Source: Vicinamibacteria bacterium (lineage in GTDB: Bacteria; Acidobacteriota; Vicinamibacteria; Marinacidobacterales; Marinacidobacteraceae). Taken from it: a DNA stretch of 64,000 bases. The notes under the pieces were generated by a model. The model saw only the letters and a list, made by a program, of their open reading frames with translations, made no database searches and was not told the origin of the DNA. The stretch is taken from contig CAXXLQ010000004.1 in the NCBI GenBank assembly GCA_963668695.2, positions 3,424,001-3,488,000 of the forward strand, given 5' to 3'. Below are positions 62 to 51,539 of this stretch, piece by piece (within the stretch, counting starts at the first letter, position 1; every line of letters begins with the position of its first letter). Made by a program: the position numbers and the translations under genes.

Positions 62-217
62 ACAGCCTGTGGCGAAACCCAGGCGGCCCAGTTCTCCCGG
101 TGGGGGCTCCTCCCTCACGCGCCTTGCCAGCCGGACCCCCACCGGGAGAACTGGGCCTCGCCCCCACCGGGAGGACTGGCCGGTCTCGGCGCTCACCCGG
201 GTTCCACCACAGGCTGT
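62..217 (+). mobile_element. MITE (TIR ACAGCCkGTGGyGrAACCC, TA target duplication)
   Basis: Reads ACAGCCTGTGGCGAAACCC...GGGTTCCACCACAGGCTGT, with TA at 60-61 and 218-219. Internal modules are shared with copies at 6.4, 7.0, 7.2, 49.1 and 51.3 kb. Confidence 0.85.
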
Positions 218-228
218 TAGGGCTGTTG

Positions 229-435
229 GCAGCCGGTGGCGAAACCCTGAAGGCAACCATCCGCGGCGCGTAGCGCCGCGGGGGTGGGGTGTGGGGAGGG
301 GTGTCCCCTCCCCACCGGAGACGGCGGAGCGAATCGCCCACCAACCCGTGGGGAAAGCGCCCCGCCCGCACCCAAACCGCCAGATTCGGCGCACGGGACG
401 CCCGGCGCGTGCGGGGTGCTTTCGCCACGGGCTAC
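229..435. mobile_element. MITE-like element with related TIRs but different interior
   Basis: Reads GCAGCCGGTGGCGAAAC...TTTCGCCACGGGCTAC, flanked by TG on both sides. Internal hairpins at 261-281 and 291-315. Confidence 0.6.
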
Positions 436-1013
436 TGCCAGGCCGCCGGCGCGATGAGCACCTCGATTTCCTCCTCGGCAACGGTGGCGTCGCTTGTTTC
501 GAGTCGCGCCCGCACCAACCAGCGAAAACGGCCCTCGAAGGACCGATAGGAAAAACGGGCGTCCTCGGGGATCGGGAGCTCCGAGGTGACCTCCCACTGG
601 CCCCCGGCCGGCAGTGACTCGCCGCGGCAGAGCTCATGATCCAGCGACAGCACCTTCCGGCTCGCCCCCTGCGCGTCACGCTGCTCGGCGGTCAGCGTCA
701 CCCGGACCTCCTTGATCTCGACCGGCCGCCTTGTCACGATGCGAACCGCGCAGCGGATCGCTCCACCTGGCACGGCCGCTTCGCTGAGGCCAAGATCACA
801 AACCGAAAACGGGTGCCACCCCAGAAACCACACGGTCGCGCCCGCTGAGCGAATGACGAAAAAAGCCACCAGGAGGCCACCGAGCAGCCAGGGCAGCGTC
901 CAGTTGTAAAAGGTCGCAAGGTGGACAAAGAAGAGCGCCCCCAAAACGGTGCCGGAAAGCGAGAGCAGCGAGCGCCGCTTGTCGCGGGCGATGAGCGAAG
1001 TCCAGACGAGCAT
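432..1013 (-). CDS. Membrane protein with two N-terminal TM segments and a beta-sandwich (arrestin/SpoOM-like) C-terminal domain
   Basis: 193 aa ORF with hydrophobic helices followed by a beta-rich pattern. The stop codon lies within the right TIR of the 229-435 element. Confidence 0.6.
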   Translation of the reverse strand: MLVWTSLIARDKRRSLLSLSGTVLGALFFVHLATFYNWTLPWLLGGLLVAFFVIRSAGATVWFLGWHPFSVCDLGLSEAAVPGGAIRCAVRIVTRRPVEIKEVRVTLTAEQRDAQGASRKVLSLDHELCRGESLPAGGQWEVTSELPIPEDARFSYRSFEGRFRWLVRARLETSDATVAEEEIEVLIAPAAWQ

Positions 1014-1046
1014 GGCCGGCCGTCAGCTTCCCGAGAGGACCAGCTT

Positions 1047-1916
1047 GTGCAGCCGGTGAAACGGAGCGCGGACGGCACGCCGGATTCTAGGCCCCGCGTT
1101 CTCGTCGTCGGACACCTGACCGAGGATCTGACTCGTCAAGGGCCGCGGCTCGGCGGCGCCGCCGCCTACGCGGGGCTGCTGGCCCACCGGTTCGGTGGCC
1201 GGGTCACGATCCTGACCGCGGCCGACGCGGCGTTTCCGTACCTCGAAGGTTTCGCCGGAATCGCCATTCACCGGGTGCCCTCCCGGGACCGGACCCGGTT
1301 CGAAAACCGCTACCGGGCAAACGGCGCGCGGGAACAGACGATCCTGAGCCGCGCGGCGGTCATCCCGGAAACACAAATCCGCCGCGCGGTGGGAGAACTT
1401 CCGCCCGGATCGGCGGTCCTCTACTGCCCAGTCGCCGATGAACTCGGCGGTGCCGGCCCCCTGCCCCGCCCGCACGGAGCGCGCGCCCTCGCCGGAGCCG
1501 CTCTCCAGGGTTTGCTGCGTCGCTGGGACAACAAAGGACGAGTTTCCATCCGTTGGTCGCCGGAAATCATCGAGAGACTCTCGGATCTCGACTTCGTGTC
1601 CGTTTCCGAAACGGAGTTTCCGGAAGGAACCGACCTCCCGCTCCCCATCGTGGCCGTGACCCGGGGCCGCCACGGGACGGTGCTTTGTCGTCCGGGACGC
1701 CCGGCCACGGAGGTTCCCGCTGTCTCCGCCGTCGAGGTGGACCCCACGGGGGCGGGTGACGTGTTCGCCGCGGCGCTGCTGATCGGGCTGTGGAACCAAA
1801 GGCCGGTCCACCAAGCCGCCCAACTCGCAGCCGCCGCGGCGGCGATCAGCGTCGAGTCGCCGGGAACCGAGGGAATCCCGACGCTCGACGAAGCAACCGC
1901 CCGGATCAGCGCGTGA
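1047..1916 (+). CDS. PfkB-family carbohydrate kinase
   Basis: N-terminal GGAAAY and C-terminal VDPTGAGDVF motifs. GTG at 1047 follows a GAGAGGA RBS. Confidence 0.9.
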   Translation: MQPVKRSADGTPDSRPRVLVVGHLTEDLTRQGPRLGGAAAYAGLLAHRFGGRVTILTAADAAFPYLEGFAGIAIHRVPSRDRTRFENRYRANGAREQTILSRAAVIPETQIRRAVGELPPGSAVLYCPVADELGGAGPLPRPHGARALAGAALQGLLRRWDNKGRVSIRWSPEIIERLSDLDFVSVSETEFPEGTDLPLPIVAVTRGRHGTVLCRPGRPATEVPAVSAVEVDPTGAGDVFAAALLIGLWNQRPVHQAAQLAAAAAAISVESPGTEGIPTLDEATARISA

Positions 1917-1929
1917 GCAGCGGGATGGC

Positions 1930-1981
1930 GTGGGAACGCCGGCCTTCAGGCCGGCACCGCCCGCCGAAAGGCGGGCGAGAG
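1930..1981 (+). repeat. REP-like hairpin element (family 2)
   Basis: GTGGGAACGCCGGCCTTCAGGCCGGCA followed by CCCGCCGAAAGGCGGG. Similar to 13655-13700 and 39548-39588. Lies between convergent genes. Confidence 0.65.
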
Positions 1982-2057
1982 CACGCGCTGCCGACGTGCG
2001 TGAGGCGCGCCAATGCCGGAAACGGACAGCGTCACCGTTGCGGGTGGCTGAGCCGGG

Positions 2058-2732
2058 CTATCGCGTGAGCAACGGGATGGCGTCCGGACTCACCCGCGCC
2101 CCGGTTACCCGCCAGGCCCAGATCCCACGTCGCTGAAACAGGATGTCAGCCCAGAGCGGATCCTCGTCCGGGGGATCGTTCTGGACTCCCAGCCGAACGG
2201 CGAAGTCGTTCCACCCCTCGTAGCCGGCGCTCACCGATACCCCGCCCACCCGGTCGGACTCCTGCTGCGCTTCCCCGCCGAGATCGAGGAAGGCCGACCA
2301 TCCTTTCGCGGCGGAGGGGCCCTCGCGGAGCGCCCGGTCCACCCCCTCGGGGGTCGCGAACCGGTCAATCATCGCCTCGCCCACGGCGACTGCGAGTTGC
2401 CCCCCCAGATCAGGCGCCGGCTCGGGGGTTTCGGATCCCCCGTCTTCCAACTCGGCGCTTCGCCGGCTCTCGGCCCGTTGCGAGGCTCCGACCGTGCGGC
2501 GCAACTCGCTCTTGAGATTCTCCCGAACCGCTTCGAAGTCCACGAAGTCGTGGAGAGTGTCCGCATCCCCGAGGGCGACCGCCTCGCGGATGCGCCAGGC
2601 CGCGAAGTAGGGGCCCAGATAGATGCTGGCGCCGAGGCCCAGGAAAACCGCCCAGCCAAGGAGCAGATAAAGACGCCGGCGGCTCACTTGGACAATACTA
2701 ACGGCCGGGAATCCCTCGGGTTCCCGAAACAA
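2058..2732 (-). CDS. DUF2939-like membrane-anchored protein (start uncertain)
   Basis: TM helix followed by a PY..A..I..A...GD...L...VDF.AVR..LK pattern, with a C-terminal RRG..W..T. Confidence 0.75.
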   Translation of the reverse strand: MFREPEGFPAVSIVQVSRRRLYLLLGWAVFLGLGASIYLGPYFAAWRIREAVALGDADTLHDFVDFEAVRENLKSELRRTVGASQRAESRRSAELEDGGSETPEPAPDLGGQLAVAVGEAMIDRFATPEGVDRALREGPSAAKGWSAFLDLGGEAQQESDRVGGVSVSAGYEGWNDFAVRLGVQNDPPDEDPLWADILFQRRGIWAWRVTGARVSPDAIPLLTR

Positions 2733-2761
2733 CCGCCCCGGATCCGGGGCCCCGGGAAACA

Positions 2762-3727
2762 GTGGGAAAACTCGTCGCTCCTCCGGTCGAATCGGCCGAG
2801 TCCTCCGTCCATTTCGCCCTGGACGGAGGCGTCTTCGGCGGCCTTACCGAAGCCCATCTGCAACACGCCATTTCGCCCCGTGAGTTGGCGGGCTTCCAGC
2901 GGGATGGCTACCTCGTCATTCCGAACGCGCTCGGCAAGGGTGAGTTGGCCCGTCTCCTCGAGGCAGTGGACCGCCTCGATGAACGGGAGCGCGGGCGCCT
3001 GGAACTCGCTCCGGGCGACATGATGTCCCGCTTCTGTGTCATTCGCTTCGACCCGGCGTTCCTCGAACTCGTCAGTTGGGTTTGGACGTTTCCCAAGGTG
3101 TGGGGCATCCTCGGCTGGAACATCCAGCTCTACATCTCGCATCTGGTGGTGTACCCGCCGGAAACCTGGGGCGGCCAACAGTGTCGGGCGCCTGTCTGGC
3201 ACCAGGACAGTGGCCGTCCGGTCCTGGAGTTGGAGCGCCCCGCTCCCCGGCTCTCGGTGAAGGTTGCCTATTGGCTCACCGACACGCACGGCGGAGGCCG
3301 CGGCGCCATGGAGGTGATTCCGGGGAGCCACCGGCTCGACGCGCCGCCACCCGAGTGCGACGATCCGGAATGGGATGGCCGGTTCCTGCTGGAGGCGTCC
3401 CCCGGCGACGCGGTCATCTTCGACCGCCGGCTCTGGCACCGTCACGGCAAGAACACCTCCGACGTGGTGCGCAAGGCCCTTTTCTTCGGGTACAGCTACC
3501 GGTGGCTCCGGGCGCTCGACTACTCGGCGATGCCGGAAGCGCTGCTTGAGCGCTGCGATCCGGTCCTCCGGCAGCTCCTTGGAGACGGCCTTACGGAAGT
3601 GGGGTGGTACCAACCGCAGCCCGAAGACGTGCCGCTTCGATCCTGGCTTGCCGCCCGCGTGGGCGAAGAGGGGCTCTGGCAACCTCCCTCCTCCCAGCCA
3701 CAGCAGGAACTGGGGTCCCGGGAGTGA
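2762..3727 (+). CDS. Phytanoyl-CoA dioxygenase family Fe(II)/2OG oxygenase
   Basis: [28 protein letters not shown] and a distal Arg. Confidence 0.9.
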
Positions 3728-4176
3728 TCGGGGCGCGGGGGGCGCTGGCCGCCATCGCCCTCGGTTCGGCGTTCGCCCTGGCTTCGATGGCCGGTGTCCC
3801 GCCCGCCCCACAAGCGGAACCGAGCGCCGAACCCCTCTCGGTGGGAGAGCTGCGGGATCGGGCTCGAGAAATCCTCGCCGGAGTCCAGGAACGCGAGGTT
3901 CCTCTATCGGTGGCCCGTCGACAGATCGAACAGCTCCTGCGCGACCTGAAAGCGCTGGGCGAAGCGGAAGGCTGGAGCCCGGTGAACCGCCGCCTCGAAA
4001 TGACGATCGCCCGGCCCGAGGACCTCCGCCCCACCGTCACCGAGGAATGTCCCCTCTTCTTCGAGGAGGAGCTCATCCAGCTCTGCCCGCTCGACCAGTC
4101 CCGTTCGGAAATCTGGGGCAACCAGGTGCTGGTCTGCGAGTTCGCCTGCGCCCCGGAATCAGATCCGGCCCGGTGA
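3724..4176 (+). CDS. Hypothetical secreted protein (4 Cys in C-terminal part)
   Basis: GTGA overlaps with both neighbours and a signal-peptide-like N-terminus. Confidence 0.7.
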
Positions 4177-5744
4177 CTGTGCGGTCCGGGCGGTCGCGCC
4201 GCACCCTGCGGCCGCTCTACCGGCCCAAAGACGCACCGGGAGGCGAAGAGCGGACCGGCGTACCGGGCGTCCCACCCTTCACCCGCGGAATCCGCACCGG
4301 CGGGTACCGCGATCGGCTCTGGACTATGCGCCAGTACGCGGGCTACGCCACTGCGGCCGAATCCAACCGCCGCTACCGGTATCTGCTCGAAAGCGGACAG
4401 ACGGGCCTGTCGGTGGCCTTCGATCTGCCCACCCAGATCGGCTACGACTCCGACCACCCGCTGGCGGCGGGTGAAGTGGGCCGCGTCGGGGTCGCCATCG
4501 ATTCCCTCGATGACATGGAAACGCTCTTCCGAGGCATCGCTCTCGACGGCGTTTCGACCTCGATGACGATCAACGCGACGGCTCCCATTCTGGTCGCGCT
4601 CTACGTGGCGGCGGCCCGGCGCCAGGGAGTGCCGCTTTCGAAGATCGCCGGAACCGTCCAGAACGACATCCTCAAGGAGTACGCGGCACGGGGCACCTGG
4701 ATCTATCCGCCCGAGCCGTCCATGCGGCTCGCCACCGACCTCATCGAGTGGAGCCGCCGGGAGTTGCCACGCTTCCAGCCAGTGAGCGTGAGCGGGTATC
4801 ACATGCGGGAAGCCGGCTGCACCGCAGCGCAGGAGGTGGGTTTCACACTGGCCAACGGCCTCGCCTACGTCCAGTGGACCGTGGAACGGGGTCTGTCGGT
4901 GGACGAGGTGGCAACCCGCGTTTCCTTCTTTTTCAACGCCCACCGGGACTTCCTGGAGGAGGTCGCCAAGTTCCGCGCGGCCCGCCGCCTCTGGGCGCGG
5001 CTTCTGCAAGAGCGTTTCGGCTCCGAGAGCCCGAGGGCCCAGATGCTGCGGTTCCACGCCCAGACCGCGGGGTCCACCCTGACGGCCCTCGAACCCCAGG
5101 TGAATGTGGTCCGCACCACCCTGGAAGCTCTCGCCGCGGTGCTCGGCGGGACGCAATCGCTTCATACGAACGCGCTCGACGAGGCACTGGGGCTTCCGAC
5201 CGAGGAAACGGCCGAACTAGCGCTCCGCACCCAGCAGGTGATCGCCTTCGAGAGCGGGGTGGCGGCGACGGCCGATCCGCTCGGCGGCTCGTGGGCCATC
5301 GAGGCGCTGACCGACCAGATCGAGGCGGAGGCGCTCGACTGGATCGAGCAGGTGGACCGGTTGGGCGGCGCGGTTGCGGCCATCAGGGCGGGTTTCGTTC
5401 AGGCGCGCATCCAGGAAGCCGCCTACACCTACCAGCAGGACGTGGAAGCCGGCGACGAAATCGTCGTGGGGGTAAACCGATTCCGGCAGGAGGGAGAGCG
5501 AAGCCGCGTCGAACCGTTCGAACTGGATGCGGAAACGGAAACCTCCCAGGTCGAACGGGTGCGGCGGGTGCGCGCCCGCAGAGAGGCGACGGAGGTGGAC
5601 CGCACGCTTCGGGAGGTCCGCCAAGTGGCCGCCGAAGGAGGCAACCTGATGCCCGCCATTCTGGCCGCGGTTTCGGCGATGGCCACCGTCGGGGAGATCA
5701 GCGACGCGCTGAGGGCCGTCTTCGGCGAGCACCGGGGCAACTGA
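4173..5744 (+). CDS. Methylmalonyl-CoA/acyl-CoA mutase, large (catalytic) subunit
   Basis: [40 protein letters not shown] and GGTQSLHTN motifs. No fused B12-binding domain. Confidence 0.95.
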
Positions 5745-5748
5745 TCCG

Positions 5749-6369
5749 GTGCCCGAACCGGTGGCGCCCTCTTTCGGCGAGATCCTGGCCGCCGGGCGTT
5801 ACTCCGACTTTCGGGAGCGGCTCCGCGGAAGCGGCTGCACGCGCTGCGGGCTCGCGGCAGGCAGGACCCACATCGTGGTGGACCGCGGGAATCCGGAGGC
5901 CGCCATCCTCGCGGTCGGAGAAGCGCCCGGGGCTTCCGAGGACGCCCGAGGCATCGCATTCTCTGGACGCGCCGGGAAGATGCTGGACGAACTCTTCCGA
6001 GGCGCCGGCCTCTCGACCGACGAACACCTGTTCATCGTGAATGTGGTGAAGTGCCGCCCGCCCCGCAACCGAGCGCCGCACGCCGAGGAAGCCGCCCGCT
6101 GCCGGCCATTTCTGGAGCGGCAACTCGCCCTCTCACCGGCTCGAATCATCGCGCTCATGGGGGCCACCGCACTACGCCATTTCGCCCCGGAACGCGCGAA
6201 GGGGCCGCTCGGCGCTCAGGTGGGCCGTTTCTTCCGCCTGCCGACCTGGCCTGACCGCGATTTCGTCACGCTCTACCACCCGGCCGCGATCCTGTACAAC
6301 CGGTCGCTGGAGGCGCGTGCGCGGGAGCATGTCCGAGCGCTGGCGGCCCGAATCCAGAGCAGCCGCTGA
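5749..6369 (+). CDS. Uracil-DNA glycosylase family 4 (Fe-S)
   Basis: CTRC, GEAPG, KCRPP.NR.P and YHPA motifs. Confidence 0.93.
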   Translation: MPEPVAPSFGEILAAGRYSDFRERLRGSGCTRCGLAAGRTHIVVDRGNPEAAILAVGEAPGASEDARGIAFSGRAGKMLDELFRGAGLSTDEHLFIVNVVKCRPPRNRAPHAEEAARCRPFLERQLALSPARIIALMGATALRHFAPERAKGPLGAQVGRFFRLPTWPDRDFVTLYHPAAILYNRSLEARAREHVRALAARIQSSR

Positions 6370-6396: not shown

Positions 6397-6668
6397 ACAG
6401 CCGGTGGTGAAACCCACGTGAGCGCCGAGGCTGGCCAGTTCTCCCGGTGGGGGCGAGGCCCAGTTCTCCCGGTGGGGCCAGTTCTCCCGGTGGGGGCCCG
6501 GCTGACAAGGCGCGTGAGGGAGGAGCCCCCACCGGGAGAACTGGCCCGGGTGTATTTCGACCGAAACGCAACGCAGAACGCAGCGAAGCGGAGTGGTTCA
6601 GCCGGGATGGATCGCCGGTCGAGCCCCCACCGGGAGAACTGGGCCGCGTGGGTTTTGCCACAGGCTGC
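6397..6668 (-). mobile_element. MITE copy (reverse orientation)
   Basis: TA|ACAGCCGGTGGTGAAACCC...GGGTTTTGCCACAGGCTGC|TA. Inverted relative to 7196-7448. Confidence 0.85.
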
Positions 6669-6731
6669 TAACTCCGCTCGCGGATGTTCCCGGTCACGCT
6701 GCCGACCCGGGACGAGGTGTACTGATCGATG

Positions 6732-6768: not shown

Positions 6769-7026
6769 ATGGCACAAACCGCGAAGCTGTTCTGGTCCGG
6801 GCGTTCGCAAGCGGTGCGCCTGCCGAAGTCGTTCCGGATGGAAGGGAGCGAAGTGCGGATCCGGCGTCAAGGCCGCACGGTGATCCTCGAGCCGATCGCA
6901 GAAGACTGGGCGTGGCTTGACGCCATCGGCGGCGCCTTCTCCGACGATTTTTTCGCTGAGGGACGACAGCAACCTGACGAACAGGAACGACCCGCTCTGG
7001 ACACCCTGTTTAACAGCCGGTGGTGA
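6769..7026 (+). CDS. vapB: VapB/VagC (AbrB-fold) antitoxin
   Basis: TAKLF.SGRSQAVRLPK.FR motif and GGGAGAGG RBS. The last codons are supplied by the MITE TIR. Confidence 0.93.
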   Translation: MAQTAKLFWSGRSQAVRLPKSFRMEGSEVRIRRQGRTVILEPIAEDWAWLDAIGGAFSDDFFAEGRQQPDEQERPALDTLFNSRW

Positions 7027-7193
7027 AACCCGCGCGGCGTTCGAGCGGCGATCCATCCCGCCTGAACCGCGCCGCTTTGCGGCGCTCTGCGTTGCGTTTC
7101 GGTCGAAATACACTCGGTATTCCTCCCTCACGCGCCTTGTCAGCCGGGCGCCTCACCGCTCTCGGCGCTCACCCGGGTTCCACCACAGGCTGT
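7013..7193 (+). mobile_element. MITE copy inserted in vapB 3' end
   Basis: TA at 7011-7012 and 7194-7195, with complete TIRs. Lacks the 20-bp internal units. Confidence 0.88.
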
Positions 7194-7195
7194 TA

Positions 7196-7448
7196 ACAGC
7201 CGGTGGTGAAACCCACGCGGCCCAGTTCTCCCGGTGGGGGCTCGGCCGGCGATCCATCCCGGTTGAACCGCGTCGCTTCGCGCCGCTCATCGTTGCGTTT
7301 CGGTCGAAATACACCCGGGCCAGTTCTCCCGGTAGGGGCTCCTCCCTCACGCGCCTTGTCAGCCGGGCCCCCACCGGGAGAACTGGCCCCACCGGGAGAA
7401 CTGGGCCTCACCGGCCTCGGCGCTCACCCGGGTTTCACCACAGGCTGT
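7196..7448 (+). mobile_element. MITE copy, tandem with previous
   Basis: Shares the TA at 7194-7195 and ends GGCTGT|TA (7449-7450). Carries four 20-bp units. Confidence 0.88.
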
Positions 7449-7454
7449 TAGCTG

Positions 7455-7886
7455 ATGCGGTACCTGCTCGACACCAACGCCTGCATCGCCCTGCTGAACC
7501 GAAGCGATCCCGGTCTGGAAGCGCGCGTTCGCCGCCAACGGGTGGCGGACATCGGTCTGCCCGCCCCGGTGGCGTACGAGCTGTACTACGGCGCTTTCAA
7601 GAGTGGCCGCCCGGACGAGAACCTCGCGCGGCTCGACAGCGTCGGGCTGGAAATCGTCCCCTTCGATGCAGCCGACGCCCGATCGGCGGGAGCCGTCCGG
7701 GCCGGACTGGAACGCTCTGGACGCCCGATCGGTCCGTACGACGTCCTCATCGCCGGCCAGGCCCGCGCCAGAGGGTTGGTGCTCATAACAGCCAACATGC
7801 GGGAATTCCTCCGGGTTGACGGCCTGGACTGCGAGGACTGGTCCGACCCGGGGACCGGCAACACCCGCACCACATCCGACCGGTAG
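7455..7886 (+). CDS. vapC: VapC PIN-domain toxin
   Basis: YLLDTN, EL..GA, G.PIGPYD.LIAG.A and LIT.N.REF.RV.GL..EDW. Confidence 0.95.
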   Translation: MRYLLDTNACIALLNRSDPGLEARVRRQRVADIGLPAPVAYELYYGAFKSGRPDENLARLDSVGLEIVPFDAADARSAGAVRAGLERSGRPIGPYDVLIAGQARARGLVLITANMREFLRVDGLDCEDWSDPGTGNTRTTSDR

Positions 7887-7932
7887 CCCGCCCGCCTCCG
7901 GCGAGCGGTGCCGGTGTGAAGACGGCGGTCCC
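7887..7932 (-). repeat. REP-like family 2 variant
   Basis: Reverse complement GGGACCGCCGTCTTCACACCGGCACCGCTCGCCGGAGGCGGGC. Shares GAGCGGTGCCGGTGTGAA with 39645-39662. Confidence 0.55.
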
Positions 7933-39547: not shown

Positions 39548-39692
39548 CCCGCCTGCGGCGGGCTGTGCCGACCGGAGGTCGGCGTTCCAAGCCGTCCCCG
39601 CGCTTCTTCGCGGTTGGCGTTACGCCGTCTCGCCCCGCTCCGCGGAGCGGTGCCGGTGTGAACGCCCCCACCGGGAGAACTGGCCGGCGTTC
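39548..39692 (-). repeat. Two family-2 REP-like hairpins, one interrupted by the 20-bp unit
   Basis: 39548-39588 reverse complement is GGAACGCCGACCTCCGGTCGGCACAGCCCGCCGCAGGCGGG. The 39630-39692 copy contains CCCCCACCGGGAGAACTGG. Confidence 0.7.
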
Positions 39693-39733
39693 GCTGACCA
39701 GCGCGCCATCCGCGCTGTCGGCGTCCCGGCGGG

Positions 39734-45072: not shown

Positions 45073-45073
45073 G

Positions 45074-45742
45074 ATGAGAGCTTTCGCCGCACTCGGGTTC
45101 GTCGCCGCCGCGGGCTTGGGCTGCAGCCACTCCGTCGTCGTCAACTCCGTGCCGCCGCCCGAGACCCTGCTTCCCGCGGGCGTGCTGTCCTCTTCTCTCG
45201 GACTCTTCGTGGATGCCGCGCGGGTACCGGAGGAGGTTGTGCTTCAGGACTCCTTCGACAGTCCCATATGCGGCTTCATGCGCTATCCGCTCACGGCTCG
45301 CGACGCGGTCACCCAGTCGGTGGTGGAAGCGATTCGGGCGGTAGCGGACAACATCCGGCTCGTCGATGCCCCGATACATCGCTGGCGTCTCAAGGAGAAC
45401 GGACTCGACGTCGCCGTCGTGGTGCGCGTGGAGGCGTTCGCCATCAGCCTGTCCCCGCTCCGGACAATGGTGGGTATGGATTTCGAGGCGCAAGCCGAAA
45501 TCACCCTCTCGCTCGTCGCCACCACCGAAGATGGGAGCGAAATCCGGAAGACGCTGACGGGGGCGGCCACCTGGAAGGCGGAGGACCGGTGGGGATTCCG
45601 CGGCTGCGGGCTCGGCGCGCTCCCGGCGACCCAGGCGGCGGAGCGCGCGATCCGGCATGCGACGACGCAGCTCGCAGAATGGATCGTCGGGGCTCCCGAA
45701 CTGCGTCCGTCGCTGGAACGCCCGTTGCATGACCGGGGATAG
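45074..45742 (+). CDS. Hypothetical lipoprotein (paralog 1)
   Basis: Lipobox GLGC. Homologous to the next two ORFs. Confidence 0.75.
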   Translation: MRAFAALGFVAAAGLGCSHSVVVNSVPPPETLLPAGVLSSSLGLFVDAARVPEEVVLQDSFDSPICGFMRYPLTARDAVTQSVVEAIRAVADNIRLVDAPIHRWRLKENGLDVAVVVRVEAFAISLSPLRTMVGMDFEAQAEITLSLVATTEDGSEIRKTLTGAATWKAEDRWGFRGCGLGALPATQAAERAIRHATTQLAEWIVGAPELRPSLERPLHDRG

Positions 45743-45778
45743 CGGACCGGGTCCTTCCGAGCCGCCAGGAGAAACAGG

Positions 45779-46447
45779 ATGAAGAGGACAATGACGACCC
45801 ACCCGCTTGCCGCGACGGCGATCGCGGGACTAGCCCTGACTGCACTTTCCTGCTCCCAGGCGGTGCTGGTGCGGCCGGCGCCCTCCGCCGAGGCGTTCGC
45901 CTTCGAAGCGCCCCTCCCGGCGGCGGCGGCCGTCTTCGTGGACGCCGACCAGCTCTTCCGGCAGGTCCGGATGACGCCCGACCTGGACGGAGACTCGTTG
46001 TGCGACGACGTCAGCTATCCGGTGGACGCACGCGAAGCGCTGGAGTTGTCGGTCCTCGGCACGCTGGAGCGGCTGGTGCGCAACGTCACGGCGACCGCGG
46101 CCCCGCTGGACCGGCAGGCGATGGAGGCGCGTGGGCTCGACGCCGTCATCGTCGTTCGCGCGGACACCTTCAACGTGGGTCTCAGCAGCGGCGCGTTCCT
46201 GAGCTTCGAAGCGGGCGCCGAACTCACGCTGTCGGTCTCGGTGTTCACCGGCGACGGCCTGCAGTTGCGGGAGGTGGTGTTCGGCAACGCGGTCCAGAAC
46301 CAGAGCGGGATCACCTGCGGCAACGGCGCCAAGGCGCTGGGCGCCGCGGTCGAAATCGCCATCGAGAACGCCATGACCGAGCTCGGCGAACTGATCGCCA
46401 ACTCCCCGGCATTGCGCGACTCCCTGGGTGGTCCGGGCAGCCGGTAG
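45779..46447 (+). CDS. Hypothetical lipoprotein (paralog 2)
   Basis: Lipobox LSC, FVDADQL, C...YPVDA, AELTLSVS and TC..GA..LG. Confidence 0.8.
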   Translation: MKRTMTTHPLAATAIAGLALTALSCSQAVLVRPAPSAEAFAFEAPLPAAAAVFVDADQLFRQVRMTPDLDGDSLCDDVSYPVDAREALELSVLGTLERLVRNVTATAAPLDRQAMEARGLDAVIVVRADTFNVGLSSGAFLSFEAGAELTLSVSVFTGDGLQLREVVFGNAVQNQSGITCGNGAKALGAAVEIAIENAMTELGELIANSPALRDSLGGPGSR

Positions 46448-46599
46448 AGATCTCACGCCGCACCGGTCCGGCGATCGGCGCAAACCTCGCCGGCCCCCAC
46501 CGGAATTGTCGAGGCGATCGAGGCCCGGGAACATCTCCTGGCCATAGACTCGGAGACCCGGGAACCGTTCCGCTTGGGATCGCGACCCGGGGCCAGGCC

Positions 46600-47268
46600 A
46601 TGACCCACAGCTCCCTTCGAGTTGCGCTCGCAGCGTGGTACCTGGGCGCGGCCGGCTGCACGCACGCGATCGTGATACGTCCCGCCCCGGCCTACGACCT
46701 CCTCCTTTTCGAAGCACCGCTTCCGGCAGCCGCCGCGGTCTTCGTGGACGCCGACCAGCTCCGGCGGGAAATACGCATCACTCCCGAAGAAACCGGCGGC
46801 TACGGGTGGTGCGGCGACTCGGGATACCCCGTGGACGCGGGACAAGCACTCGAGTTGTCCGTCATCGGCACCCTTGAACAGGTGATGCGCGAGGTACGCC
46901 GAACGGCAACGCCGATGGACCGGGAAACCATGGAAGCCAGGGGTTTCGACTCCGTGATCGTCGTTCGTGCCGACACCTTCGACGCGACAGTGGCCGGCGA
47001 TCCCTCTGCGGGCTTCGAAGGTAGCGCCGAGCTGACCCTCTCAGTTTCGGCCTTTACGAGCGACGGACTGCTGCTCAGGGAAACCGTCTATGGGAGCGGA
47101 ATCCAGAACGCGGCCGGGATGACCTGCAGCGGCGGGGCGGAAGCACTCGGCCTCGCCGTTGAGGTGGCCATCGAAAGCGCGATGACCGAACTGGGCGAAA
47201 TCATCGGCAACTCCCCCGAGTTGGGCAGATCCCTCGGCGCTTCCGGAACGGACCGACCGTTCGACTGA
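46600..47268 (+). CDS. Hypothetical lipoprotein (paralog 3)
   Basis: Lipobox AGC. Closely similar to paralog 2. Confidence 0.8.
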   Translation: MTHSSLRVALAAWYLGAAGCTHAIVIRPAPAYDLLLFEAPLPAAAAVFVDADQLRREIRITPEETGGYGWCGDSGYPVDAGQALELSVIGTLEQVMREVRRTATPMDRETMEARGFDSVIVVRADTFDATVAGDPSAGFEGSAELTLSVSAFTSDGLLLRETVYGSGIQNAAGMTCSGGAEALGLAVEVAIESAMTELGEIIGNSPELGRSLGASGTDRPFD

Positions 47269-47337
47269 CCGCCGCCTGGCGCGCGCCGCGGAGCTGCGCC
47301 GCGCCGGACATCCGGATTGGCCTCCACAATAGGGGCC

Positions 47338-49053
47338 ATGACGTCGTCCCTTCCGAGTCGCGGAGCCCTCGCCCTTGCCTCGTTTGCGCTCAGCGCAGCC
47401 TGTGGAGGGCCGCCCGAGGGAGGTCCGGCGGATCTCGTCGCCCGCGGGGGGGTGATCCACACGAGCGACGCGAAGCGGCCGGTCGCGGAAGCCTTTGCGG
47501 TGCAGGGCGGCCGGTTCGTGTTCGTAGGGGATTCGAGTGGCATCGAAAGCTGGATCGGAGAAGCGACCGAGATCATCGAGCTCGACGGCCGGGCCGCGAT
47601 CCCGGGCCTGATCGACGGACACCTGCATCTGGAGTCCGGCATCTCCCTCGTGCGTGGGGTGGACCTCACCGGCATTGCCGACCGCGAAGAATGGACCCGG
47701 CGCATCGCCGCGCGGGCCGCCGAACTCGGGCCCGGAGCCTGGATCGTGGGCGGACGATGGGACCACACGCTGTCCGGGGGCGAGTTTCCGTCCGTGGAAG
47801 ACCTCGACCCGGTGACTCCCGACAACCCCGTGGCGCTTTCCGACATCGACGGACACACCACCTGGGTCAACAGCCTCGCGCTCGAGATCGCCGGCGTCGG
47901 GACGGCAACCCCCGATCCGCCGGGCGGCCGGATCGTCCGCTACGCGTCCGGCGATCCCACCGGAATCCTGCTCGAGACGGCGGGCGCGCTGGTGCGCGAC
48001 CACGTTCCGCCGCTCAACGCCGAACAGGAACGAGAGGCCATGCGCCAGACCTTCGCGACTGCCGCGAGACTCGGACTCACCGGAGTCCACACCATGGCGG
48101 GGTTGGATCGGGTTCCGGAGTACGTCGAGTTCGCGACAGCCGGCCAGTTGCCGCTCAGGGTCTGGTACGGAGTGGTCGGCGCAGCGGACCAAACCCGAGA
48201 ACTCGCTGCAGTTCGCGATGACGCGCGAAGCGCGCTGGCCACCTTGACAGCGGAGCGCGGTCCGATGTTCGAAGTCGGCTATGCGAAGCTGATGGCCGAC
48301 GGGGTGCTCTCCGCGCGCACGGCTGCCTTGCTCGCTCCCTACGCCGACGCTCCCGACGAATCCGGGTTCATGGTGACGGAGTTCGAAGAGCTCTCAGAGT
48401 CGGTGACCCGGATCCACGCAGCCGGCTTCCCGGTCGCGATCCACGCGATCGGGGACCTGGCCGTACGCTCCTCGCTCGACGCCTTCGAGACGGCAGTCGG
48501 CCGCGGCCCGCAGCCGGAACTCGCGGACCGGATCGAACACATCGAGGTGCTGGATCCGAAAGACGCGCCCCGGTTCGCGGAGATCGGAGTGCTCGCCTCC
48601 TTCAATCCCCACCACTGCATCACGGGGATCGACGTCTACAACACCGCGCGCCTCGGAGAGGCGCGGGCTGCCTGGTCCTTCGCCTGGAGAGCGGCTCGGG
48701 ACGCGGGAGCCACGCTGGTGTTCGGCAGCGACTGGGCCACCGCTCCCCTCGATCCCCTGCGCCAACTCTACGCGGCGACGGTGAGGGAAAAGCCGTCCGG
48801 CGGACCGCCGGGCGGGTGGCATCCGGAGCAGCGGGTCGCCTGGCAGGAAGCGCTCACGGCCTACACGTTGGCGCCGGCGACGGCCTCCGGTTGGGAGGAT
48901 GAGATCGGCTCGATCGAGGTGGGAAAGTGGGCGGACTTCGTCGTGCTCAGCGGCCCGGTCCCGGATCCGCCCGACCGCTCGATCCTCGATCTGCGGGTGG
49001 TTTCAACGTGGCTCGGGGGCGTCGCCACCCACCGGGCGCAAGCGGACCGTTGA
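47338..49053 (+). CDS. Amidohydrolase (YtcJ-like) lipoprotein
   Basis: PGLIDGHLH, K..ADG, HAIGD, RIEH, FGSDW and GSIE.GK.ADFVVL motifs. Confidence 0.93.
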   Translation: MTSSLPSRGALALASFALSAACGGPPEGGPADLVARGGVIHTSDAKRPVAEAFAVQGGRFVFVGDSSGIESWIGEATEIIELDGRAAIPGLIDGHLHLESGISLVRGVDLTGIADREEWTRRIAARAAELGPGAWIVGGRWDHTLSGGEFPSVEDLDPVTPDNPVALSDIDGHTTWVNSLALEIAGVGTATPDPPGGRIVRYASGDPTGILLETAGALVRDHVPPLNAEQEREAMRQTFATAARLGLTGVHTMAGLDRVPEYVEFATAGQLPLRVWYGVVGAADQTRELAAVRDDARSALATLTAERGPMFEVGYAKLMADGVLSARTAALLAPYADAPDESGFMVTEFEELSESVTRIHAAGFPVAIHAIGDLAVRSSLDAFETAVGRGPQPELADRIEHIEVLDPKDAPRFAEIGVLASFNPHHCITGIDVYNTARLGEARAAWSFAWRAARDAGATLVFGSDWATAPLDPLRQLYAATVREKPSGGPPGGWHPEQRVAWQEALTAYTLAPATASGWEDEIGSIEVGKWADFVVLSGPVPDPPDRSILDLRVVSTWLGGVATHRAQADR

Positions 49054-49124
49054 ACGACGGGATCCGCTGGACCGGATCCACTGGACCGGATCTGCTGGTG
49101 GGACCGATCGGTAGGCGTCCGGTA

Positions 49125-49280
49125 ACAGCCGGTGGTGGAACCCGGGTGAGCGCCGAGAGCGGCCAGTTCTCCTGGTGGGGGCGAGGCCCAGTTCTCCCGG
49201 TGGGGGTCCGGCTGACAAGGCGCGTGAGGGAGGAGCCCCCACCGGGAGAACTGGGCCGCGTGGGTTTCACCACCGGCTGG
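49125..49280 (-). mobile_element. MITE copy (short, reverse orientation)
   Basis: TA|ACAGCCGGTGGTGGAACCC...GGGTTTCACCACCGGCTGG|TA. Confidence 0.85.
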
Positions 49281-49293
49281 TAACCGCGAGCGC

Positions 49294-50157
49294 CTATCCC
49301 GGGCTGCGCTCCACGGGTCGGGCCGGGTCGGAGCACCACTCGGACCAGGATCCCGAATAGACCGCCACATCTTCGACGCCCGCGAGTTCCAGGGCCAGGG
49401 CATTGTGCGCCGCAGTAAGGCCGGAGCCGCAGTAGCACACGATGGGGCGCCCATCCCGGGCCGCGGTGAGACCGGCGAATTTCCCGCGGAGACGCTCGGG
49501 CGCCTCGAACCGGCCGTCTGCCGCCAGGTTCTTTTTCCAGAGGTGGTTCTTCGCGCCGGGAATGCGCCCGGCCACCGGATCGATCGGTTCCCGCTCGCCG
49601 CGCCAGCGGACCGATTCGCGGGCATCCACCAGGAGATGCGCATGTCGCGCCAGTCCTGCTTCCACCTCGGCCACGCCGACCGCCATTCCGGTTACGGGCC
49701 TGGCAACGAATTGGCAGGCTGGCCGCGTCGCCTCGCCGGCGTGGAGGGCGCCCCCCGCTTCGATCCAGGCCGCGAGCCCCCCGTCCAGGACGGCGGCCCG
49801 GGTGTGTCCGAGGTAGCGCAGCATCCACCAAAGCCGCGCGGCGAACATTCCCGCGGCATCGTCGTAGGCGACCACCGCGCTGTCGGATCCGATTCCGAGT
49901 CGACCGAACACTTCGGTGATCCGCGCGACGGGCGGCAGCGGATGGCGCCCGTTGGCCCCGGTCTTCCCGGCTGCAAGATCCCGGTCGGTATCTGCAAAGA
50001 CGGCGCCGGGCAGGTGGCCTTCGAGATACCGGGCCCGTCCCCAGGACGGGTCCATGAGGTTGCAGCGCACGTCCACCACGACGGGGCCTTGGTCCCCGGT
50101 CGCGAGGCGCTCGCGGAGCCACGCAGCGGAGACGATCGGCCGTGGAGCCCAATTCAC
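49294..50157 (-). CDS. sseA: Two-domain rhodanese / 3-mercaptopyruvate sulfurtransferase
   Basis: GHLPGA, GRHPLP, AARLWW.L, LDGG..AW, YCGSG.TA and Y.GSWSEW motifs. Confidence 0.93.
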   Translation of the reverse strand: MNWAPRPIVSAAWLRERLATGDQGPVVVDVRCNLMDPSWGRARYLEGHLPGAVFADTDRDLAAGKTGANGRHPLPPVARITEVFGRLGIGSDSAVVAYDDAAGMFAARLWWMLRYLGHTRAAVLDGGLAAWIEAGGALHAGEATRPACQFVARPVTGMAVGVAEVEAGLARHAHLLVDARESVRWRGEREPIDPVAGRIPGAKNHLWKKNLAADGRFEAPERLRGKFAGLTAARDGRPIVCYCGSGLTAAHNALALELAGVEDVAVYSGSWSEWCSDPARPVERSPG

Positions 50158-50379
50158 GCCCGAAAGCCTACCGGCTCGAACCTCCGGACGGCCCCGCGGC
50201 CGGCCCGCCCGGACGGGACGGTCACGGGTCCGCTTTGGGGTCCGGATTCCTGCGACTTGGGAATGTGGACCAGAACCACATCTCCGGCATCGGTCCGCGC
50301 GTTCCCGGTGCTCCCCGCGCCCCAGCCCTGAGCGTGGCGCGACCCGACATGAAGCGGACAATTGAGGTAATCTGACGGT

Positions 50380-51243
50380 GTGACACTAAACGGTATCGAA
50401 AGACTTAGAAACGCATTTCGAGCGTTGGTTGATGCTGAAGGCCTCAGGCCTCTTGCCGCGCGGACCGGCATCCCGGTCGGTCAGATCCGAAGCCTGATCG
50501 ACGGGCGGGCGGTCCGCATCACAACTCTCGAGTTGATGACGCAGGTGCTGGGGGTGAATCTCACCATCGGCCCGGGTCTGGCCGGGGAAGCCCTCGGCGC
50601 CGGCGCTCATCGCGAGCCAGCCGGCCCCTGGCCGGACGCGGCGAGGCCCCCGGAGAGTGGCCCCAGCGTGATCGCAACGCAACTACGCGATGGCGCCGGC
50701 CGGGTGAAGGACCTGGCGGATCGGGTGGCGGCGGCAGCGCAGTCGTTGCTGCACCTGGTCTCGGGCTGGGATCCGGCGCAGGAGGCACGGGTCGTGGTCC
50801 ATGCGGAGGGCGCGCCGTGCACGGGTTCGCCGGTGATGATCCCGCTCGCGTCCGGTGTCCGGGTGGGCGCAGACTTCCCGGAGCCGGTTTTCGAGCCGTT
50901 GCCGGAGGTGACCTTGGGGCTCGCGCCGGACGCTCTCCCCGCCTGGGCGGGTGCGGATCGCCTGGTGTGTCTTCGCGCGACCGACGATGCCATGGCAGGG
51001 ACCATCGGCAACGGCGACCTCGTTGCCGTGGATCCCGGACATACGACGCCATTGGACAACCACCTCTTCGCCGTGGCGACAGAGGTCGGAGTGGCGGTGC
51101 GGCGCCTCCGCTTCCAGGATGGCTGGATCCTGACGGCCGACAATGCGGCCCATCCCGACCGGCCGCTCTCGGGGGCCGATCATCTCCTCGGCCGAGTGGC
51201 CTGGCACGGGCCGCGCCGTCGAGGCGCCACTCCCGCAAGCTGA
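50380..51243 (+). CDS. HTH + peptidase S24-like (CI/LexA-type) regulator with degenerate catalytic residues
   Basis: N-terminal HTH. The C-terminal S24 fold reads DAM (for DSM), VRRL (for VKRL), ADN and GRVAW. Confidence 0.8.
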   Translation: MTLNGIERLRNAFRALVDAEGLRPLAARTGIPVGQIRSLIDGRAVRITTLELMTQVLGVNLTIGPGLAGEALGAGAHREPAGPWPDAARPPESGPSVIATQLRDGAGRVKDLADRVAAAAQSLLHLVSGWDPAQEARVVVHAEGAPCTGSPVMIPLASGVRVGADFPEPVFEPLPEVTLGLAPDALPAWAGADRLVCLRATDDAMAGTIGNGDLVAVDPGHTTPLDNHLFAVATEVGVAVRRLRFQDGWILTADNAAHPDRPLSGADHLLGRVAWHGPRRRGATPAS

Positions 51244-51253
51244 GGGATCCCCA

Positions 51254-51539
51254 ACAGCCTGTGGACAAAGTCTCGCGGCCCGGTTCTCCCGGTGGGGGCT
51301 CGGGCGGCGATCCATCCCGGCCAAACAGCCGGTGGTGGAACCCACGCGGCCCAGTTCTCCCGGTGGGGGCTCGGCCGGCGATCCATCCCGGCTGAACCGC
51401 GTCGCTTCGCCCCGCTCATCGTTGCGTTTCGGTCGAATACACCCGGGCCAGTTCTCCCGGTGGGGCTCCTCCCTCGCGCGCCTTGTCAGCCGGGCGCCTC
51501 GCCACTCTCGGCGCTCACCCGGGTTCCACCACAGGCTGT
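51254..51539 (+). mobile_element. Truncated MITE (51254-51322) plus full MITE (51325-51539)
   Basis: Two successive left TIRs. The right end is GGGTTCCACCACAGGCTGT|TA. Confidence 0.82.

Follow-up and report, generated by a model that had tools for sequence, protein, structure and literature searches.

The 20-mer CCAGTTCTCCCGGTGGGGGC is present in 1,646 copies, 962 of them exact, in the 4.1-Mb genome of an uncultured marine Acidobacterium (hereafter G000), and we propose, with a probability of roughly 0.45, that this very small, non-coding dispersed repeat is a micro-insertion sequence, behaving as a mobile element in its own right. The central inference of the preliminary description, that a short sequence is repeatedly written into DNA independently of the MITE that commonly carries it, is upheld by its presence in REPs, other repeats and an AcrB gene, by empty orthologous sites and by its occurrence in other genera. 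In the window, the whole stretch of 64,000 nucleotides analyzed here, a search allowing up to 3 mismatches recovered 20 matches, of which 10 were exact, 8 carried one mismatch and one each carried two and three; the chance expectation was 0.01, and no shuffle out of 100 yielded as many. The match with three mismatches (58882-58901) has the look of a chance occurrence within other sequence, leaving 19 real units in the window. When 1,645 units were classified by host, 1,352 (~82%) lay in the MITE, 190 (~12%) in true REP hairpins and 103 (~6%) elsewhere. The units of the window and their hosts are given below, with S1, S2 and so on denoting sites within the MITE.

62..217, plus strand: short (156-bp) copy of the TA-duplicating MITE, with the S1-S2 stretch deleted and joined through one unit
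88..107, plus strand: exact unit, with the left flank of S1 and the right flank of S2
135..154, minus strand: unit at S3, single form with terminal T
160..179, minus strand: unit at S4, CCAGTCC variant
6397..6668, minus strand: MITE copy with 5 units (S4, doubled S3, S2, S1)
6435..6454, plus strand: unit at S4
6460..6497, plus strand: two units at S3 with an 18-bp period (6460-6479 and 6478-6497)
6525..6544, minus strand: unit at S2
6623..6642, minus strand: unit at S1
7013..7193, plus strand: MITE copy with zero units; empty alleles GT (S1), TAT (S2) and CG/GC (S3)
7196..7448, plus strand: MITE copy with 4 units
7222..7241, plus strand: unit at S1
7320..7339, plus strand: unit at S2, one mismatch
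7367..7404, minus strand: two units at S3 with an 18-bp period; empty GC in the G001 orthologue (cluster 3431221)
39640..39705, minus strand: REP hairpin, GAACGCCGG[unit]GTTCACACCGGCACC
39664..39683, minus strand: unit within the REP hairpin
49125..49280, minus strand: short MITE copy
49163..49182, plus strand: unit at S4, one mismatch
49188..49207, plus strand: unit at S3, single form with terminal T
49235..49254, minus strand: deletion product, a unit bridging the S2 and S1 flanks
51253..51322, plus strand: left portion of an older MITE from a different subfamily, interrupted by the MITE copy that follows (cluster 3475279)
51280..51299, plus strand: unit at S1 of the older MITE, CCGG variant
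51325..51539, plus strand: MITE copy filled at just S1 and S2
51351..51370, plus strand: unit at S1
51448..51467, plus strand: unit at S2, two mismatches at the 3' end

The presence or absence of a ~20-bp unit at sites of the MITE, from which the preliminary description started, is confirmed by these copies, by the genome counts and by filled and empty alleles. As it had stated, the copy at 7013-7193 is free of units and reads GGC-GT-TCG, CGG-TAT-TCC and GGG-CG-CCT at exactly those three points where the copy at 7196-7448 carries units, the third being doubled; only the first two are filled at 51325-51539, and a fourth site (GCCGAG..GG^GAGGC) is occupied in 62-217, 6397-6668 and 49125-49280. 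Instead of the four internal sites that it named as a minimum, the genome shows at least nine, and the proposed rule that units of the left half point one way and those of the right half the other fails at S5, a left-middle position with a reverse orientation. Deletion between the S1 unit and the S2 unit produced the short copies at 62-217 and 49125-49280, and the full middle part is, by contrast, not lost everywhere: the full middle part is retained in the G001 orthologue of the former (cluster 3424087). MITE lengths rise stepwise with 0 to 5 units; the unit-free copy 7013..7193 folds at -44.2 kcal/mol, and that at 7196..7448, whose units pair mutually, at -86.4 kcal/mol (z -9.4). Entire MITE copies also vary: 6397..6668 is missing from another strain's contig, which joins 6398 to 6726, and 49125..49280 is missing in G001 and G004, where an empty TA site is seen. 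The G001 orthologue of the unit at 51280..51299 is a related, partly deleted unit. The REP-like hairpin said to be interrupted at 39664 indeed contains a unit, which is 20/20 identical in G000, G001 and G004 though its flanks differ (cluster 3463665); its flank class, GGAACGCCGG/TTCACACCGG, has the empty forms TC (64) and TG (45) in the genome.

Genome-wide, units fall into 135 flank classes, 87 of which have the unit at no more than one mismatch. An empty form, counted where the same flanks, separated by just 1-3 nt, recur in the genome at least 5 times, also exists for 27 of the 45 recurrent classes (size at least 2), and in none of these was a zero-length join the commonest form. The unit is not simply added: it substitutes for 1-3 bases of the empty allele, with a net gain of 18 or 19, and in 84 of the 87 classes its left-hand dinucleotide is GG, GC or CG.

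One exact unit lies in frame inside a single-copy AcrB/RND transporter gene, the product of which has a full-length Pfam match (residues 6-1044, E 6e-241). This site is filled in G000 and G001 and empty in G004, G008, G013, G010 and G009, with CCCG|CG|CGGG in the empty form becoming CCCG|20-mer|CGGG, and the protein changes from ..GGEP-V-RDAA.. to ..GGEP-GPHRENW-RDAA... A second orthologous case, in another repeat, has GCGCG|AAT|CGCGC in G004, where G000 and G001 carry G plus the unit. In cluster 3628018, G000 and G004 share an orthologous MITE whose unit is oppositely oriented in the two genomes and offset by 5 nt. Across shared orthologous copies (11 only), the unit has changed at 3 of 220 positions and the flanks at 55 of 896, about four times fewer in the unit, which on sequence comparison suggests a conserved master template, selection or homogenization.

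Turnover probably also occurs at the strain level: between co-assembled strain duplicates with 0.69% SNP divergence, all from one assembly, we noted 9 unit presence/absence differences against 104 units in 275 kb aligned, with the remainder of the element identical. The in-place switch is always between a site's own two alleles (S2, TAT versus G plus unit; S3, GC versus a unit ending in T), much as in gene conversion. This, together with the MITE's large share of all units, could be read as the unit being a mere variable module of the MITE, with sites that are all ancestral and differences resulting from deletion and recombination among MITEs. A backbone tree built from 56 MITEs requires 14, 9 and 14 state changes at the sites, where shuffling gives means of 18.1, 18.5 and 18.6; S2 is clustered, its 9 changes lying below the shuffled minimum of 13, which favors such a module, whereas the 14 changes each of S1 and S3 speak against it. 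Seven of the 8 site-state combinations occur. Furthermore, a single contiguous deletion never converts a filled allele to an empty one, units lie in REPs, other repeats and a unique gene and nested within themselves, and other genera use different MITE sites, so that this reading, already contradicted by the AcrB site, has in our view almost no probability left. Both outcomes that the preliminary description had set against its own inference, a unit confined to the MITE with ancestral sites and a copy at 39664 that is a MITE remnant, are contrary to what was found.

The 20-mer was found in all 15 genomes of the genus, in 5 of 9 genomes from elsewhere in the family and in 0 of 16 genomes of two other families, and it is identical in at least 5 genera. 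In other genera it occupies different MITE sites and another REP family and is nested within itself in up to three layers; in G018 it is inserted into its own center. Units at no more than one mismatch number 1,497 in G000, 721 in G004, 244 in G018 and 56 in G019. The unit itself also serves as the target of a further small element.

This distribution bears on the possibility that the 20-mer represents the joined ends left after loss of the core from a longer mobile element of ~210 bp (CCAGTT + 190-bp core + TTCTCCCGGTGGGGGC). G000 does contain ~23 right ends and ~9 left ends at unit-like sites, e.g. S1 at C4:2157835, and C4:3489663 is a plain unit in G000 but the long form in G004 and, by position, in G001. 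Nevertheless, the core is restricted to this genus (13/13, versus 0/12 genomes of five other genera), and the core-free G018 and G019 still hold 178 and 33 exact units. Right halves beyond whole units number 6 in each of these two genomes, all of those in G019 being explained by variant units, as would be those in G018 by inference. Given also that units exceed long forms by ~60 to 1, and that the junction shows one duplicated T or TT, which a core inserted into a pre-existing unit would leave, we consider an origin from the long element improbable.

The suggestion that a RAYT/HUH-type agent writes the unit found no support. No match to PF01797 (RAYT/IS200-type Y1 HUH transposase) or PF00078 (reverse transcriptase) was detected in the G000 genome; as this genome is 91.7% complete, a missing enzyme gene is not proof of absence. 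Among 13 other genomes of the genus, 12 do carry RAYT-like genes, and the commonest arrangement of units is as inverted pairs 27 bp apart (148 cases), which fold strongly (-22.4 kcal/mol, z -5.4), as might be expected of a REP/REPIN family spread by a RAYT transposase. However, these pairs are fixed positions within the MITE, and the lone unit has no significant fold and is not a hairpin (-1.9 kcal/mol, z -0.10); its sequence lacks a GTAG or CGTC tag. Moreover, the relatives' RAYT-like genes are flanked by plain REP hairpins, only one of 8 loci having a unit within 2.5 kb, and no RAYT gene was found in G000, G004, G018 or G019, all of which bear the unit. We accordingly regard a REP/REPIN identity as very improbable.

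Alternatively, the unit could be a functional motif (a protein-binding site, a terminator or mRNA-stabilizing arm, or a DNA-uptake sequence) kept by selection or recombination drive, its presence or absence reflecting allele replacement rather than mobility. Conservation across genera beyond that of the flanks, the strong hairpins often made by inverted pairs and the fast allele turnover between strains would agree with this, as would one copy that, read in reverse, provides GGGAGA 12 nt before a GTG start and is conserved in 4 species. Yet selection does not generate 20-bp inserts at no fewer than 87 unrelated locations, ~94% of copies are embedded in selfish repeats of other kinds, and the in-frame insert in the transporter gene is no regulatory site; we thus judge this explanation to have only a small chance of being right.

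The data show with high confidence that new copies arise through de novo insertion: the unit is placed directly after a G/C-rich dinucleotide (GG, GC or CG), replacing the next 1-3 bases for a net gain of 18 or 19, in either orientation and mostly in GC-rich hairpin-forming DNA, occasionally in unique DNA including a gene. Judging from the counts, copy number would probably then rise passively as the high-copy TA-duplicating MITE and the REP hairpins propagate themselves. Between such host repeats, ectopic gene conversion would, on balance, flip site alleles in place, and inter-unit recombination would delete the intervening DNA. For the primary insertion our best guess, a tentative one, dispenses with a transposase: in a template switch during replication or repair of hairpin-rich DNA, a short synthesis patch may be copied from another unit, the preceding G/C dinucleotide providing the priming microhomology and the new strand returning a few bases downstream in the target. 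What inclines us to such a repair-type origin is the lack of PF00078 and PF01797 matches, the one-base junction variation (+18/+19), the loss of 1-3 target bases and the lack of any replichore orientation bias of units.

Against a template switch, donor flank stretches of variable length would be expected, yet the unit ends are constant over 87 contexts, except for about one base, which better fits an enzyme or a fixed-length template. Palindrome centers were not clearly commoner at insertion points than at positions shifted within the same flanks (arm of at least 5 in 0.37 versus 0.28), the replaced bases lie mostly in predicted stems rather than loops, and the 20-mer is identical across genera. 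These constant ends favor a dedicated trans-acting system that writes a fixed sequence with host repeats as preferred targets, be it an enzyme recognizing the unit ends or a polymerase copying a short RNA/DNA template, as do the share of exact copies and the identity across genera, the fixed 18-bp period in 144 tandem pairs, the self-insertion in G018 and the greater conservation of orthologous units than of their flanks. We nevertheless hold it to be rather doubtful, since the genome shows neither a reverse transcriptase nor a Y1 HUH domain, no candidate mobilizing gene or template locus for the unit was found, and the junctions are untidy for a site-specific recombinase or transposase.

The preliminary description did not recognize a described element; this holds for the 20-mer sequence, which was not found in the published literature, but the kind of element has a precedent. 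Small dispersed repeats SDR1-SDR8, of 21-27 nt, were reportedly described from Nostoc by Elhai, Kato, Cousins, Lindblad and Costa in 2008, in Genome Res 18:1484. Those of Nostoc punctiforme and relatives are the closest parallel, reportedly being likewise very short, high-copy, non-coding and limited to a single lineage, lying within other repeats (mini-transposons among them), sometimes self-nested, and inserted at precise points. SDR5 is 21 nt long, has its insertion point in HIP1 between nucleotides 3 and 4, and is unknown outside Nostocaceae (PMC4390886, PMC5861425, PMC13756078). The 20-mer differs in belonging to another phylum, in its unrelated sequence and in having no significant fold alone, whereas SDR4-6 are said to share a structure. 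Replacement of target bases, in-frame gene insertion, documented strain-level turnover and targeting of the unit by a further small element also appear to set it apart from the SDRs, although some of these features may hold there too. To our knowledge, no mobilizing enzyme has been identified for either the SDRs or the 20-mer.

Like REP/REPIN sequences with RAYTs (Bertels and Rainey 2011, PMC3116915; Di Nocera et al. 2013, PMC3733652), the 20-mer is short, abundant and extragenic and often forms hairpins as inverted doublets. Unlike them, it is non-palindromic, untagged, abundant without RAYT and not a neighbor of RAYT genes, and it inserts into REPs rather than being one; true REPs and RAYT-like genes are present in its own lineage. 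BOX of Streptococcus pneumoniae, BIMEs of Escherichia coli and NIME/dRS3 of Neisseria are modular mosaic repeats, similar in being composite intergenic repeats with a short module present, absent or multiplied, but we know of no insertion of such modules by themselves into unrelated repeats or unique genes. In quasipalindrome-templated mutation by strand switching (Ripley's model), single events perfect an imperfect palindrome; there too an error of host replication draws on a nearby or ectopic template to rewrite hairpin-prone DNA, and a templated stretch can replace a few bases, though we are unaware of its spreading one fixed 20-mer to many unrelated sites. At 20 letters and ~1,600 copies, this sequence would be among the smallest mobile DNA elements known, and it offers a rare clean case for asking how very small elements move.

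Twenty matches to the unit, the 20-mer CCAGTTCTCCCGGTGGGGGC, were found in the window with up to 3 mismatches, 10 of them exact, against 0.01 expected; the match at 58882, which has 3 mismatches, looks like chance. The layouts reported in the preliminary description are all present in the window sequence. Across the whole source genome (G000; a 4.10-Mb assembly of 67% G+C in 4 contigs, C1 to C4) we recovered 1,646 matches, made up of 962 exact copies and a further 535, 104 and 45 with 1, 2 and 3 mismatches respectively, the unit being 20 nt long (19–21 depending on the junction). Assigned by marker motifs in their flanks, 1,352 of 1,645 copies lie in the TA-duplicating MITE, 190 in REP hairpins and 103 elsewhere, and about 94% are inside other repeats. 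Such repeat counts are inflated, as about 275 kb of the assembly occurs twice at ~99.3% identity (C1 versus C4:304-421 kb, C3 versus C4:3505-3538 kb, and C4:13-148 kb versus C4:3783-3914 kb), so that roughly 100 units are counted twice. This duplication probably reflects co-assembled strains, in agreement with a contamination estimate of 9.3%, and the blocks serve as a natural population sample. Both ends were recognised in 343 MITE copies, of which 87 have no unit and 64, 60, 65, 50 and 17 have one to five respectively, the length of the MITE rising stepwise with unit number from ~180 to 270 bp. Units within a MITE pair with each other: the unit-free MITE at 7013-7193 folds at -44.2 kcal/mol and the four-unit MITE at 7196-7448 at -86.4 kcal/mol, and no fold was found for the unit alone (-1.9 kcal/mol, z -0.10). 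These two MITEs lie, at window 6770-7890, between a putative AbrB/MazE-type antitoxin gene and a putative PIN-domain toxin gene (start ~7453, MRYLLDTN); the nearest relative, G001, has one MITE at this place.

The preliminary description had proposed that the unit inserts independently of the MITE, and a single-copy gene bears this out. One exact unit lies inside an open frame of 1,051 codons whose residues 6-1044 match the AcrB/AcrD/AcrF family (E 6e-241). In the relatives this stretch occurs once per genome, a paralogue being only 67-71% identical. The site is filled in G000 (both strain copies) and G001, and empty in five relatives (G004, G008, G013, G010 and G009), where it is the perfect palindrome CCCGCGCGGG; in the filled site the 20-mer takes the place of the central CG. 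The frame remains open, the protein reading HGGEPGPHRENWRDAAIAG in the filled and HGGEPVRDAAVAG in the empty state, and no repeat with the flanks of this site was found that could act as a donor for homologous conversion. A second orthologous case involves a third kind of repeat, with GCGCG-AAT-CGCGC in G004 versus G plus the unit in G000 and G001. In addition, one orthologous MITE has a unit at GACCGG^GAGGCG in G000 and a reversed unit five bases away in G004. The AcrB site, together with these two cases, proves that the unit inserts independently. When long open frames across the other solitary units were searched, no Pfam family other than AcrB extended over the unit itself. The unit upstream of a membrane-protein gene at C4:3267755 was rejected as a clean insertion, since the stretch missing there in distant relatives measures 39 bp rather than 20. 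Upstream of the same kind of gene, C4:3267780-3267900 holds a short satellite of ~13-bp units (TCAGCGGACCCAAT-like), seen only in G000 among six genomes aligned.

The filled and empty alleles within repeats allowed the target rule to be delineated. For 27 of the 45 classes of flanks that occur at least twice in G000, the same flanks are also joined, in many copies, by just a few bases, and it is these joining bases that the unit replaces, rather than being simply added.

Empty and filled forms of sites in the MITE (S1 to S3) and in a REP hairpin of the source genome
S1: empty GCGGC-GT-TCGG, 155 copies; filled, 233 exact
S2: empty CCCGG-TAT-TCC, 106 copies; filled (G plus unit), 265
S3: empty GAGGC-GC-CCGG, 340 copies; filled, 75 single ending in T and 129 double
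REP: empty GCCGG-T-CTTCAG, with T in 90 and C in 18; filled, 68

A direct join is the commonest form in none of these flank classes. The net gain is 18 bases per insertion, or 19 where a single base is replaced, and tandem pairs of units (144 in G000) have a period of 18 bp, as if the insertion had replaced the last GC of an existing unit. At least 87 different contexts have received the unit, and the dinucleotide on its 5' side is GG, GC or CG in 84 of 87 classes. These data show insertion at many unrelated sites after a G/C-rich dinucleotide, with the loss of 1–3 target bases. The replaced bases are mostly in predicted stems. Three empty sites are the cleanest (CCCG-CG-CGGG, GCGCG-AAT-CGCGC and, within the unit itself, CTCCC-GGT-GGGGG), and in each the replaced bases occupy the middle of a short palindrome or adjoin it; a test for palindrome centres at the junctions gave no clear excess over shifted controls. 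No bias in the orientation of the unit by replichore was found. The unit is not itself a MITE, in the sense of a derivative of a DDE transposon, as its two ends are unrelated and target bases are lost, not duplicated.

Searches of other genomes recovered the exact 20-mer in 15 of 15 others of the genus and 5 of 9 others of the family, and in none of 16 genomes from two other families of the order. A scan of GTDB with one genome per species gave at least 107 stretches. The matches listed are from Acidobacteriota with a single exception, an exact 20-mer on a 6-kb contig (L191) of a bin labelled Gammaproteobacteria, which may be mis-binned or result from transfer. In genomes of other genera the unit occupies further sites: in G019 a MITE site, GGCGATGC-AT-CCCGG, that is nearly always empty in G000, and in G018 the MITE sites GTGGC-GA-GGCGCC and CTGAC-GA-GGCGCG and a different REP family, GAGTCCGGCG-CG-CCGGCA. 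In G018 it is also nested in itself, as CCAGTTCTCCCGG-unit-GGGGC with up to 3 onion-like layers and in a second form, CCGGTTCTCCC-unit-TAGGGGC; G000 has no self-nested units. Each insertion described from G018 and G019 places 20 bases where there were 2.

The unit is in turn a probable target. In G000 a 190-bp non-coding element lies inside units, as seen from ~23 of its right and 9 of its left ends, with the layout CCAGTT-GCTGTGAAAATGCAG...GGACCCGATCATGAGGGT-TTCTCCCGGTGGGGGC and duplication of T or TT.

Locations of the 190-bp element
C4:2157835-2158060, C4:902774-902960, C1:7610-7817 and ~20 more: 190-bp element
Near window 39361: degenerate right end of the 190-bp element

This core often contains a REP that itself carries a unit, giving four nesting layers: unit in REP, in 190-bp element, in another unit, in MITE or REP. 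Its right end, GGAGGACCCGATCATG, resembles a ribosome-binding site and start codon. An Rfam search of ten loci with the element identified no family, one sub-threshold match (E 0.12) being dismissed. The core was found in all 13 genomes examined from the genus, but not in 12 genomes that represent five other genera. In G018 and G019 the surplus of exact right halves over whole units is just 6 each, and variant units explain all 6 in the latter. Because it is limited to the genus and the surplus of right halves is so small in those two genomes, we read the core as a younger element that targets the unit, rather than as the parent from which the unit derives. Precise loss of the core is possible, as one locus shows: the unit is plain in G000 but split in G004 and, judged by position, in G001.

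The strain blocks also reveal turnover in place. They differ at 1,900 of 274,417 aligned bases (0.69%) and show 9 differences in the presence of a unit, where one copy of these blocks has 104 aligned units. The polymorphic sites include C4:90726, C4:11089 and C4:46925, with their partners at the opposite end of C4. The clearest difference stands in a 358-bp alignment that has just one further mismatch. The switches are always between the two standing alleles of a site, down to details that fresh insertion or deletion would not reproduce (the terminal T where S3 holds one unit, the G preceding an S2 unit, and TAT where S2 is empty), and no single contiguous deletion makes the empty allele from the filled one. 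We therefore infer that they arise by ectopic gene conversion between copies of the MITE and REPs, which number in the hundreds. A three-way comparison of ~400 kb of G000 with G001 (~93% identical) and G004 (~89%) points the same way. In it, an orthologous MITE has an S5 unit in G000 only, one REP is filled by different unit variants in G000 and G004 and empty in G001, and only 5 and 6 of the 154 units in the G000 region are at places shared with G001 and G004 respectively. In the 11 shared copies the unit has changed at 3 of 220 positions and the flanks at 55 of 896. The preliminary description had set repeated writing of the unit against a history in which all sites are ancestral. On a MITE backbone tree with units masked, the states of S1, S2 and S3 need 14, 9 and 14 changes (shuffled-label means ~18) and 7 of 8 combinations of these states occur in the 56 backbones. 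A history of a few ancestral states is not supported, on a tree that is a weak instrument because it has ~180 columns and only 56 of 343 copies passed the filters. Four public runs gave short-read contigs that break inside repeats and are uninformative on unit polymorphism; the MITE at 6397-6668 is missing from one contig of another sample, and MITE-like contigs in an RNA library are no proof of transcription.

As to the agent of insertion, a RAYT or other HUH enzyme had been suggested initially, and the gene content speaks against it. No Y1 HUH transposase (PF01797) was found in G000, and a tblastn search of this genome with the RAYT-like protein of a relative reached at best E 0.16, two weak places being unrelated genes. 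Of 13 other genomes searched within the genus, 12 have RAYT-like genes, but such genes were not found in G000, G004, G018 and G019, all of which are rich in units. Those of the relatives (L102-L109; G001, G008, G010, G013 and G014) are flanked on both sides by inverted arrays of the REP hairpin GGAGCGCCGGTCTTCAGACCGGCA, and just one of 8 loci has a unit within 2.5 kb. Thus the REP-like hairpins are true REPs, in which the 20-mer is lodged as a guest, and its interpretation as the REP of a RAYT can be rejected. REP elements are characterised by a terminal GTAG or CGTC tag (Di Nocera 2013, PMC3733652); direct reading of the 20-mer finds neither tag nor its complement, and its fold (-1.9 kcal/mol, z -0.10) is not that of an imperfect palindrome. 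In G000 and G004, where no RAYT-like gene was found, REPs are still there, and at C4:3317738 a REP stem is apparently flipped relative to the G001 orthologue (GCCGACC..GGTCGGC versus GCCGGTC..GACCGGC). A non-autonomous element of the IS200/IS605 type is likewise rejected, given the lack of hairpins in the unit, of a Y1 gene in G000 and of replichore bias. The IS110 transposase has a single copy in G000, at C4:482399-483700 (L001), which sits in a REP hairpin between GTGCCGACCGGAGGTC and CGGCGTTCCC and not in a unit, and it was discounted as the mover. No reverse transcriptase domain was found in G000, and reverse transcription was discarded as the source of the unit on this ground.

We propose that unit copies rise passively as the host repeats amplify, and that conversion takes place among these repeats. 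For primary insertion we favor, with a probability of about one in three (0.35), short-patch synthesis for which another copy serves as template while hairpin-rich DNA is replicated or repaired. This reading draws on the lack of a suitable enzyme in G000, junctions that vary by one base and the loss of target bases, and the 5' dinucleotide could act as priming microhomology. It tells against such synthesis that the unit has constant ends, is identical across genera and changes more slowly than its flanks (3/220 versus 55/896 positions in 11 shared copies). These features would rather fit a unit written from a fixed template or by a dedicated enzyme, an explanation we consider somewhat less probable. 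Equally tentative is its broader form, in which a new DNA-writing activity, perhaps using a short nucleic-acid template, inserts one fixed sequence of 18-20 nt after G/C-rich dinucleotides, replacing few bases, without reverse transcriptase, HUH or DDE transposase domains. Were this true, the small dispersed repeats (SDRs) of Nostoc would be a second instance of the same mobility class.

These SDRs are the nearest precedent. As described by Elhai et al. in 2008, they are reportedly 21-27 nt long, occur in heptamer arrays and mini-transposons, are sometimes self-nested and were judged recently mobile. Later papers (PMC4390886, PMC5861425, PMC13756078) describe SDR5 as a 21-nt sequence that inserts precisely within its target HIP1, assign it no function and report no SDRs outside Nostocaceae. 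The unit is similarly a short dispersed repeat of high copy number (20 nt, 1,646 copies, 962 exact), embedded in other repeats (MITE 1,352/1,645, REPs 190), self-nesting in G018 and recently mobile, as judged from filled and empty orthologous sites (AcrB, the second site and the strain differences). However, SDR4-6 reportedly share a secondary structure backed by compensatory changes, whereas the unit alone has no fold (z -0.10) and its copies vary too little for covariation to show. The host is unrelated, and the sequence appears to be so too. We therefore regard the unit as of the same little-known kind and not as a member of the family. Neither the 20-mer or its complement nor the genus name 'Marinacidobacterium' was met in the literature searched. 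DNA uptake sequences arise mostly by substitution, are spread through genes and are recognised by the competence machinery; the unit, in contrast, is an insertion with ~94% of copies in other repeats.

Mobile DNA is usually thought to require at least two enzyme-binding ends and tens to hundreds of bases. A foldless unit of 20 bases is at the lower limit of what can move and, despite this minimal size, has reached at least 87 contexts, including one in frame in a conserved gene. To our knowledge the only comparable case is that of the Nostoc SDRs, which has been without explanation since 2008. For the insertion rule, this lineage offers several closed genomes, a clean filled/empty pair in unique DNA, strain-level turnover, and relatives with and without the unit, which together turn the hunt for the gene or template behind the insertions into a concrete problem of comparison. 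In these Acidobacteria the unit accounts for the changeable interiors of the MITEs, and it displays a four-layer nesting of small elements, from unit through REP, 190-bp element and unit again to the MITE or REP host.
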